Below are positions 6,945-7,799 of a DNA stretch of 46,277 nucleotides, piece by piece (the first letter of the stretch is position 1; every line of letters begins with the position of its first letter). Both the position numbers and the translations under genes were made by a program. The notes below the pieces were generated by a model. The model saw only the letters and a list, made by a program, of their open reading frames with translations. It ran no database searches and was not told the origin of the DNA. The stretch spans positions 1-46,277 of the forward strand of contig SMWZ01000028.1 of assembly GCA_004356455.1 (NCBI GenBank). Direction: 5' to 3'. This DNA comes from Deltaproteobacteria bacterium. Its GTDB lineage: Bacteria > Myxococcota_A > UBA9160 > SZUA-336.

Positions 6945-7799
6945 TCAGGCGGACGCGTCCCACACGAGTCGCACCTGCTGGCTGTTGCAATCGGTCTCTA
7001 CGCGCGGAGCGGGCCCCAGCCACAGGCCCTGGTCATCGACGCTACGTCCGCTCCGGACGTCGTAGCGATCGCCGTGCCAGGGGCAGCGGATGCACCCGTG
7101 CTCGAGCGGGGCGTCATCTAGCGGCCCCAGCGAATGCGGACATACGATCGAGTGGGCCACGAGCGCTCCGTCCAGCTCCACGACGCGGAAGGGCCGGCCA
7201 TCGAGTTCGACCACCAGCGGCAGCTGCGCGCGCACGTCTTCGAGCGCACCCCGCGTGAGCAGCGCGTCGCCTCCGATTCGCGCTGGGCGGCGTCGCGAGA
7301 GAAGCTGCTCACACCGCATCATCATGGCCTCGTCCCCGTCCCAGAGCTGCGTGTACAGGCGCATGTAGGCCACAGCAAGGCCCTCCGCCTGCTCCCGTAT
7401 CAGGTTCGGCAGCAGGAACTCCACCTCGATCCCGGTGCGCTGCGCGCTCAGCGGCTCCAGGCGTGTCCAGATCTCGCTGCCCTCCCCCACGCCTGCTGTC
7501 GTTCGGGTGGAGTAACGTCCCTGGTCGCGCTCGATCCGCAGCTCGATGTCGACGACCTCGCCCGCGGGCTGGAGGCCAACGCGCACACGCCATCCCCAGG
7601 AACCCGACTCCAGGAGCTTGATGTCCGAGAACGAGCTGCGGTATAGCCAGGGCAGGTGCTCCCAGTCCAAAACGTTCTCCCAGACCCGAGACAGCGACGC
7701 ACGGACCGTGCGGCGCTAAACCGTGACGCTGCTCAGGGAGTCGGAGACCGAGGTGCTAACGCGCGTCGTCGAAGACCGCTCCGGGCGCTGACTAGACAC
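6945..7799 (-). pseudogene. Rieske 2Fe-2S protein with N-terminal oxygenase-catalytic-like domain, interrupted by an in-frame TAG at 7718-7716
   Basis: GTG 7799 overlaps the fadA5 end; reads MSSQRPE...SVTV*RRTVRASLSRVWENVLDWEHLPWLY...; C-terminal Rieske motif CPH-x16-CPWH. Confidence 0.75.

Follow-up and report, generated by a model that had tools for sequence, protein, structure and literature searches.

A decayed gene of an unnamed START-then-Rieske protein family at the end of a steroid side-chain operon in a deltaproteobacterial genome

INTRODUCTION

To our knowledge, all Rieske oxygenases described so far carry the Rieske domain before the catalytic domain. In these enzymes, a bridging aspartate precedes the first iron-ligand histidine, such as Asp205 in NDO and Asp178 in KshA. 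KshA, the 3-ketosteroid 9alpha-hydroxylase oxygenase, is an example of the Rieske-first order; its catalytic domain, which has been termed "minimal," has the helix-grip/START fold, binds iron through His181, His186, and Asp304, and contributes Asp178 as an inter-subunit bridge (PMC4064121). A full-text search of the literature returned no description of an oxygenase with the START-then-Rieske order, although absence there is not proof, and the only other order-reversed precedent that it returned was NamH, in which a metallo-beta-lactamase (MBL) fold is followed by a C-terminal Rieske domain.

Here we describe a locus in a 46,277-nucleotide stretch of DNA (the window), which is one whole contig (SMWZ01000028.1) of the metagenome-assembled genome (MAG) GCA_004356455.1 of Deltaproteobacteria bacterium. 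A sequence-only reading of the window had proposed a permuted, compact Rieske oxygenase that is coupled to fadA5 and might hydroxylate steroids. Our analysis indicates that the locus is a recent pseudogene of an unnamed family, the members of which are most likely Rieske-type non-heme iron oxygenases of reverse domain order (we put the probability of this reading at roughly 0.7).

RESULTS

Layout of the locus

On the minus strand, the frame comprises 284 codons and a TGA stop (Table 1). The octamer GTGTCTAG holds both the GTG start of the frame and, as its final three bases, the stop codon of the upstream thiolase gene, and because the start lies inside this octamer, the two genes are considered to be translationally coupled. 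In the intact ortholog P0003, the start overlaps the thiolase gene in the same way and is also GTG. All three motifs on which the sequence-only reading was built were located in the frame, ENVLDWEHLPWLY and LWDGDEAMM in the N-terminal part and the Rieske CPH-x16-CPWH motif at the C terminus. Their arrangement exceeds chance: more than 1,700 homologs have the same architecture, and the motifs do not vary among 113 aligned intact members.

Pfam identified the Rieske domain PF00355 at the C terminus of the frame (E = 1.4e-10) and, weakly, an SRPBCC domain (Polyketide_cyc2; E = 2.7e-4) and VanA_C (E = 0.14) at the N terminus. The window copy retains the four Rieske ligands C220, H222, C239, and H242 and the putative bridging aspartate D45. 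The predicted 2-His-1-carboxylate set, complete by sequence in the intact family, is incomplete in the window copy, where the second histidine is a tyrosine; in addition, the LWDGDEAMM segment has Gly155 where the family has a conserved glutamate. Past the in-frame TAG, the first ATG, GTG, or TTG is the TTG listed in Table 1, which is why the ORF lists and the public gene calls, including P0001 and P0002, which begin at this codon, report a protein of only 241 amino acids.

TABLE 1 Features of the locus and of the adjacent operon (positions in the window)
Feature	Position	Strand	Basis or remark
Whole pseudogene, START-type domain followed by Rieske domain	6945..7799	-	86% identity to the intact 284-aa ortholog P0003, collinear and gap-free
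GTG start	7797..7799	-	Lies within GTGTCTAG, the 8 nt over which the frame overlaps the thiolase gene (stop, 7792-7794)
TGA stop	6945-6947	-	Translation
In-frame TAG, codon 28	7716..7718	-	Near-invariant Tyr in intact homologs; TAC in three orthologs
TTG, first possible start past the TAG	7668..7670	-	Heads the residual 241-aa ORF
N-terminal START/helix-grip (VanA_C-like) domain, residues 22-168	7296..7736	-	AF2 topology of the ortholog, Foldseek START matches, Pfam VanA_C and Polyketide_cyc2
ENVLDWEHLPWLY, predicted iron/bridging-Asp motif E-N-x2-D-x2-H-x4-H	7641..7679	-	Last ligand His changed to Tyr (codon 53, TAC, 7641-7643)
LWDGDEAMM, long C-terminal helix of the START domain	7320..7346	-	Candidate carboxylate ligand: Asp156 (7332-7334)
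C-terminal Rieske [2Fe-2S] domain, residues 181-279	6963..7259	-	Pfam PF00355, profile matches to solved Rieske structures, AF2 model
CPHSLGPLDDAPLEHGCIRCPWH, cluster ligands CPH-x16-CPWH	7074..7142	-	Translation
FadA5-type steroid 3-ketoacyl-CoA thiolase, upstream and translationally coupled	7792..8955	-	NCBIfam NF005889 equivalog; Pfam thiolase N and C domains
Rest of the igr-like operon	9021..12366	-	Pfam/NCBIfam, including Pfam on the near-identical contig L028
Ltp-type thiolase	9021-10241	-	676 bits against a cutoff of 469
DUF35/ChsH2-type OB protein	10205-10609	-	igr-like operon
MaoC-type hydratase	10606-11640	-	igr-like operon
Class II aldolase	11650-12366	-	igr-like operon

A widespread family with a fixed domain order

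The homologs counted above were recovered in a word-indexed search; nearly all are 260 to 290 amino acids long, and in the source databases they carry no label, "Rieske 2Fe-2S domain-containing protein," or "ring-hydroxylating ferredoxin subunit." When 1.84 billion representatives were searched exhaustively with a profile, 213 clusters at 50% identity were obtained (E ≤ 1e-30), and a scan of one genome per species placed the family in 343 species, with intact relatives of about 265 to 285 amino acids. The hosts are mostly uncultured Myxococcota/"Deltaproteobacteria," Binatia, Caulobacterales, and other Alphaproteobacteria. NCBIfam contains no model of the whole protein.

Every member examined has the START domain before the Rieske domain, whereas the canonical arrangement is an N-terminal Rieske domain and a C-terminal catalytic domain. 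The reversal with respect to KshA-type oxygenases that the sequence-only reading had noticed is thus seen in the Pfam assignments, in the AlphaFold2 (AF2) model, and in the family scan. The reading had also called the protein permuted, which may be the wrong term: the scores of the C-terminal Rieske domain against small soluble Rieske ferredoxins equal or slightly exceed those against the Rieske domains of oxygenases, and an independent fusion of a catalytic domain and a ferredoxin is therefore as plausible as a permutation.

Columns that are invariant in the 113 aligned intact members include N42, D45, W46, H48, L49, P50, L52, and H53 in the N-terminal motif, W153 and D156 on the long helix, and C220, H222, C239, W241, and H242 in the Rieske domain. 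Among 100 diverse, near-full-length representatives, D45 was present in 96, H48 in 85, H53 in 94, and D156 in 95, and the Rieske ligands were found in about 90, the exceptions being mostly fragment-like. The motif in its strict form is DWEHLP[W/F/Y], from which 25 genome loci depart; in all 24 genes recovered from these loci, both histidines and D156 are retained. One member with the sequence WEEDE indicates that D156, and not D154, is the constant carboxylate. Conservation of the His/His/Asp residues among intact homologs, on which the earlier reading had made its proposal depend, is therefore almost complete at the level of the family.

Eight of the 100 representatives (P0190, P0199, P0208, P0222, P0239, P0242, and others) have an arginine at the position of the first putative iron-ligand histidine (D-R-H-D) and keep H53, D156, and all Rieske ligands. 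Judging from the alignment, this subgroup could be a functionally shifted subfamily or could reflect an alignment shift.

Relationship of the N-terminal domain to oxygenase catalytic domains

AF2, run on P0003 with the 113-sequence alignment, gave a confident two-domain model (mean pLDDT, 92.9; pTM, 0.83). The order of elements is beta1 (residues 22 to 32), alpha1 (36 to 44), alpha2 (46 to 52), six strands, a long helix (135 to 168), a short linker, and the Rieske domain (181 to 279). In the model, H48 is on alpha2, H53 follows just after it, and D156 is on the long helix; the topology and the alignment together suggest that these residues converge on one site. The best 50 Foldseek matches in the PDB were generic metal-free START proteins (ARO/CYC, Bet v 1, and PYL; target TM-scores, 0.65 to 0.77) and included neither an oxygenase catalytic domain nor a solved structure spanning both domains (best query TM-score, 0.44), while a profile search of PDB sequences matched the Rieske half only. 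Since the catalytic domains of oxygenases are larger START folds, this comparison confirms the START fold and cannot tell an oxygenase from a START protein that lacks a metal.

When the 113 members were scanned singly with Pfam, the Rieske domain was matched in all of them, VanA_C in 98, and Polyketide_cyc2 in 71; KshA_C, Ring_hydroxyl_A, and DUF5914 were also matched by single members. VanA_C (PF19112; Pfam cutoff, 23.5 bits) represents the catalytic part of Rieske oxygenases of the vanillate-demethylase type. Several members scored above its cutoff, reaching 36 bits, with a best E value of 8.8e-9. P0019, for example, scored 31 bits, with residues 17 to 160 aligned to profile positions 2 to 169 of 193; in most members, strong alignment is confined to the first ~30 profile positions.

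Profiles of the family were then compared by hhalign with canonical VanA-type genes of related genomes and with the three KshA-type genes of the window's own genome, in which no canonical VanA_C gene was found. The Rieske domains aligned with each other (E = 1e-9), and a separate match joined the N-terminal domain to the catalytic domain (E = 2e-4), pairing ENvlDweHlpwlH with EN..D..H..fvH and D156 with the aspartate of "fgQDipiW." With the comparators split, the VanA set matched the motif region only (E = 3e-5), and the KshA set matched the whole domain and ended on the same aspartate (E = 9e-3). The probabilities of these profile-profile matches are modest (47 to 73%). The KshA-type comparator is genuinely related to KshA, matching PDB 4QDC with an E value of 4e-57, and its FxQDxxIW corresponds to Phe301-Asp304-Trp308 of KshA; from the hhalign alignments and the published KshA assignments, D45, H48, H53, and D156 are equated with Asp178, His181, His186, and Asp304, respectively. 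These alignments support the view that the N-terminal domain is a compact START/helix-grip domain related specifically to the catalytic domains of Rieske oxygenases, and the reading of the protein as a reversed, compact Rieske oxygenase is supported at the family level.

Operon and genomic context

The adjacent thiolase scored 670 bits against the NCBIfam equivalog model for "steroid 3-ketoacyl-CoA thiolase" (NF005889; cutoff, 515). The coupling to fadA5 at the end of a steroid operon that the sequence-only reading had described was confirmed, the Rieske gene overlapping the FadA5 equivalog and being the last gene of an igr-like operon. Orthologs with 86%, 77%, and 62% identity (P0003, P0009, and P0013) follow the same operon, and the steroid synteny is limited to this small clade, with identities of at least 62%.

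Downstream of the pseudogene are a convergent MBL-fold gene, a TetR regulator, and three P450 genes. The MBL-fold gene (5841-6926, plus strand) partially matches the "Strvi_7410 family" model; it also adjoins the Rieske gene in the closest orthologs (L031 and L028), and a relative with 59% identity is present at the distant locus L069. In a 651-amino-acid ORF (2988-4943, minus strand), Pfam and NCBIfam place the P450 domain only at residues ~270 to 650, and the long N-terminal extension probably stems from an ORF that was called too long and does not represent a real domain.

The wider survey covered 80 species-level loci, in all of which the target gene was located by a relaxed motif, and a range of five genes. 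No neighbor is conserved across these loci: the thiolase of the window type was found in 1 of the 80 and the hydratase in none, and neither a reductase gene nor a ferredoxin gene recurs consistently next to the target. The genes most often seen encode an SDR (16 loci), an enoyl-CoA hydratase (16 loci), a Na+/H+ exchanger (13 loci), a pyridine-nucleotide disulfide oxidoreductase (10 loci, of the Caulobacter type in the representatives seen), an acyl-CoA dehydrogenase (7 loci), and a luciferase-like monooxygenase (7 loci). The gene of P0056 overlaps an SDR gene. The context of the family is catabolic, with a lipid/CoA flavor. A steroid substrate is plausible for the small clade only; the role of steroid hydroxylase suggested by the sequence-only reading is speculative, as it depends on synteny in that narrow clade and no neighbor is conserved in the 80 other species.

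Some individual loci have neighborhoods of their own. P0016 (L113:5591-8813) adjoins a ferredoxin reductase of the BphA4/CamA type (Pyr_redox_2 and Reductase_C) and a family III CoA-transferase. P0052 (L117:5120-7659) lies between an SDR gene and a two-domain VOC (extradiol-dioxygenase-like) gene, flanks that resemble the oxygenase/dehydrogenase/ring-cleavage trio of aromatic pathways. At seven loci (L079, L082, L084, L090, L100, and others; the representatives seen are of the Caulobacter type), an upstream block recurs that consists of a DUF1499 protein (always adjacent), a dihydrolipoamide-dehydrogenase-like flavoprotein, a protein of ~238 amino acids, and a divergent radical-SAM-like gene.

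The MAG itself carries three canonical KshA-type genes (L016 to L018; C25:22318-22899, C87:8787-9413, and C92:26782-27363), which score 102 to 148 bits against KshA_C, and it therefore has conventional candidates for the 9alpha-hydroxylase apart from the dead gene.

These observations also bear on a different view of the family, namely, that it comprises Rieske ferredoxins fused to a ligand-binding START domain, which could serve as lipid or sterol carriers, as sensors, or as redox partners for P450s or canonical oxygenases, the window copy still being a pseudogene. The metal-free START proteins among the best 50 Foldseek matches are in keeping with it, as are the best matches of the C-terminal domain, which are soluble Rieske ferredoxins and RFESD (3d89, CarAc, NDO ferredoxin, and AndAb), the P450 genes near the family member in the window and at 5 of the 80 loci, and the JGI label "ferredoxin subunit." However, a plain carrier needs no invariant E-N-x2-D-x2-H-x4-H motif and aspartate that match the oxygenase ligands residue for residue, and many members pass the VanA_C cutoff of Pfam. 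We consider the ferredoxin-START fusion unlikely, and we favor the oxygenase reading.

Recent decay of the window copy

The window gene is a recently inactivated pseudogene of this widespread, unnamed family, and the decay took place in the lineage of one species. At codon 28, the orthologs have TAC and the window has TAG; at codon 53, the orthologs have CAC or CAT and the window has TAC. Three independent Logan assemblies, built from different runs, carry exactly the same two changes as the MAG, and these assemblies were not copied from each other, because one has its own single-nucleotide polymorphism (SNP) nearby. The lost His53 is present in all 113 aligned members and in the 94 representatives mentioned above, and tyrosine replaces it in none. 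The TAG is an ordinary stop in this genome, because the adjacent thiolase gene ends with TAG. All 17 homologs from 40 related genomes are free of internal stops, and no second copy of the gene was found in the MAG, which is 90% complete.

The rest of the frame has also changed more than its relatives. With P0009, P0010, or P0011 as outgroups, the window copy has 16 to 27 unique amino acid changes versus 8 to 14 in each intact sister (22 to 27 versus 11 to 12 with P0009). The 16 changes seen with P0009 and P0010 as outgroups fall equally in the N-terminal and the Rieske half (8 each). They hit Y28, H53, A72, E155, R163, and Y244, none of which varies among the 17 intact relatives compared, and R163, like H53, is invariant across all 113 intact members; in the Rieske half, they include the near-invariant Y244D, T218I, and L183R. 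The pairwise dN/dS ratio between the window copy and P0003 is 0.415, compared with 0.20 for the thiolase gene and 0.16 for the neighboring MBL gene. In a three-taxon analysis, the window branch has a ratio of ~0.5 to 1.0 and the P0003 branch one of 0.22 to 0.27, values that rest on few substitutions, and the thiolase gene along the window branch has one of 0.14 to 0.21. Among intact members, pairwise ratios of 0.24 to 0.30 indicate purifying selection. Although the counts are small, all of these lines of evidence agree in direction. Hence the gene, which the sequence-only reading had treated as repairable at its TAG, has in addition lost a putative iron-ligand histidine and other invariant residues and has evolved near neutrality. 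No functional product is expected from the locus.

The ORF of 241 amino acids that starts at TTG 7670 might instead encode a neofunctionalized product, e.g., a stand-alone Rieske ferredoxin with a remnant of the START domain. It is open, all four cluster ligands are intact, it is found in at least four assemblies, and a Shine-Dalgarno-like GGGAG lies 6 nucleotides upstream of its TTG. This GGGAG, however, is made merely by the conserved Trp-Glu-Asn codons TGGGAGAAC (7668-7695, minus strand), the truncation removes strand beta1, helix alpha1, E41, and N42, the Rieske half has changed at conserved sites as much as the N-terminal half, and the dN/dS ratio of the window branch is near neutral. We therefore regard a new function of the remnant as very improbable; the GGGAG may explain why gene callers annotate the remnant confidently.

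That the gene is intact in vivo, with the TAG being read through or an assembly or sequencing error one base away from the TAC of the orthologs, is hardly credible, since the same TAG recurs in the MAG and in independent assemblies with a distinct SNP in one, TAG terminates the thiolase gene, and H53Y and accelerated evolution are independent signs of decay; sequencing error and recoding of TAG were both rejected on the first two of these grounds.

DISCUSSION

Proposed function of the intact family

If the intact proteins are oxygenases, as we propose, a chain of ~270 amino acids would begin with a minimal catalytic START/helix-grip domain of ~150 residues, which a short linker would join to a Rieske [2Fe-2S] domain the size of a ferredoxin. 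H48, H53, and D156 on the helix would form the predicted 2-His-1-carboxylate iron site, with D45 as the bridging aspartate. A reductase or a ferredoxin would reduce the Rieske cluster, from which the electron would reach the mononuclear iron by way of D45 as the bridge, probably by crossing from one subunit to another in the manner of the alpha3 oxygenases. The iron would then activate O2, and a hydrophobic substrate bound in the cavity of the START domain would be oxidized. Our data show how the protein is built and conserved, that it is homologous to the catalytic domains of oxygenases, and that the window copy is a pseudogene; the binding of iron, the route of the electron, the chemistry with O2, and the nature of the substrate are inferred. 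In the lineage of the window, the gene closed a steroid side-chain operon (hydratase-DUF35-Ltp-FadA5), to which it was translationally coupled, before Tyr28 became TAG, His53 became Tyr, and the frame entered near-neutral drift.

A broader picture, which as a whole we offer tentatively and rate at somewhat below even odds, is that the intact family is an undescribed class of Rieske oxygenases, in which a START domain of ~150 amino acids with a 2-His-1-Asp site precedes a ferredoxin-like Rieske domain. As parts of this same picture, (i) the class could have been born by fusion rather than by permutation; (ii) the geometry of its electron transfer might differ from that of the head-to-tail alpha3 enzymes and possibly operate within one chain; and (iii) a Myxococcota clade would act on the steroid side-chain CoA thioesters of the FadA5/Ltp2 operon, the window representing a recent loss.

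If the oxygenase reading is true, a family of hundreds of species has the reversed order and the smallest catalytic domain yet seen, and it would serve to test on which parts of the scaffold the transfer of electrons and the activation of O2 really depend and would offer a very compact chassis for biocatalysis. In uncultured Myxococcota, Binatia, and Caulobacterales, the gene clusters for lipid and steroid catabolism would also gain an oxygenase that has gone unrecognized. The decayed gene of the window is a natural control: because the species keeps the whole FadA5/Ltp2 operon while the gene decays, the reversed enzyme is dispensable for the core side-chain pathway. Annotation of the 241-amino-acid remnant by pipelines as a "Rieske domain protein" is misleading.

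Comparison with known systems

The reversed order of catalytic and Rieske domains is shared with the UDP-MurNAc hydroxylase NamH (Rv3818), in which the Rieske domain is likewise C-terminal (PMC10050696). However, the catalytic domain of NamH has the metallo-beta-lactamase (UlaG) fold and not the START fold, and the two families are unrelated. Metal-free SRPBCC/START proteins (TcmN, ZhuI ARO/CYC, Bet v 1, PYR/PYL, and MSMEG_0129) resemble the N-terminal domain in fold, as their target TM-scores show, but lack the conserved D-x2-H-x4-H and Asp set and have no Rieske domain. The C-terminal domain finds its best matches in the Rieske ferredoxins CarAc, BphF, NDO ferredoxin, and AndAb and in RFESD (PDB 3D89), which are of similar size (~100 amino acids), whereas the small soluble ferredoxins are stand-alone electron carriers without a fused catalytic domain.

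Among the oxygenases, VanA and DdmC (phthalate family, alpha3) are similar to the family in being alpha-only, with no beta subunit, and VanA_C is the best family-level match of the N-terminal domain. In these enzymes, VanA_C is C-terminal, after the Rieske domain, and longer; the ~150 residues of the catalytic domain of the family compare with 193 and 207 positions in the Pfam models VanA_C and KshA_C, respectively. KshA (PDB 2ZYL, 4QCK, and 4QDC) has in common with the family the Rieske CxH-x16-CxxH cluster, a helix-grip/START catalytic domain, the four aligned residues that run from Asp178 to Asp304, and a steroid-catabolic gene context. It differs in having the opposite domain order, a catalytic domain of about 230 amino acids, and C-terminal trimerization features that the family lacks, and the similarity between the two is at the profile level only (E = 1e-2 to 2e-4). 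The family is distantly homologous to the alpha-only Rieske oxygenases VanA, DdmC, and KshA and would work as they do; it is a credible variant of Rieske oxygenase, with domain order being the one defining feature in which it departs from them.
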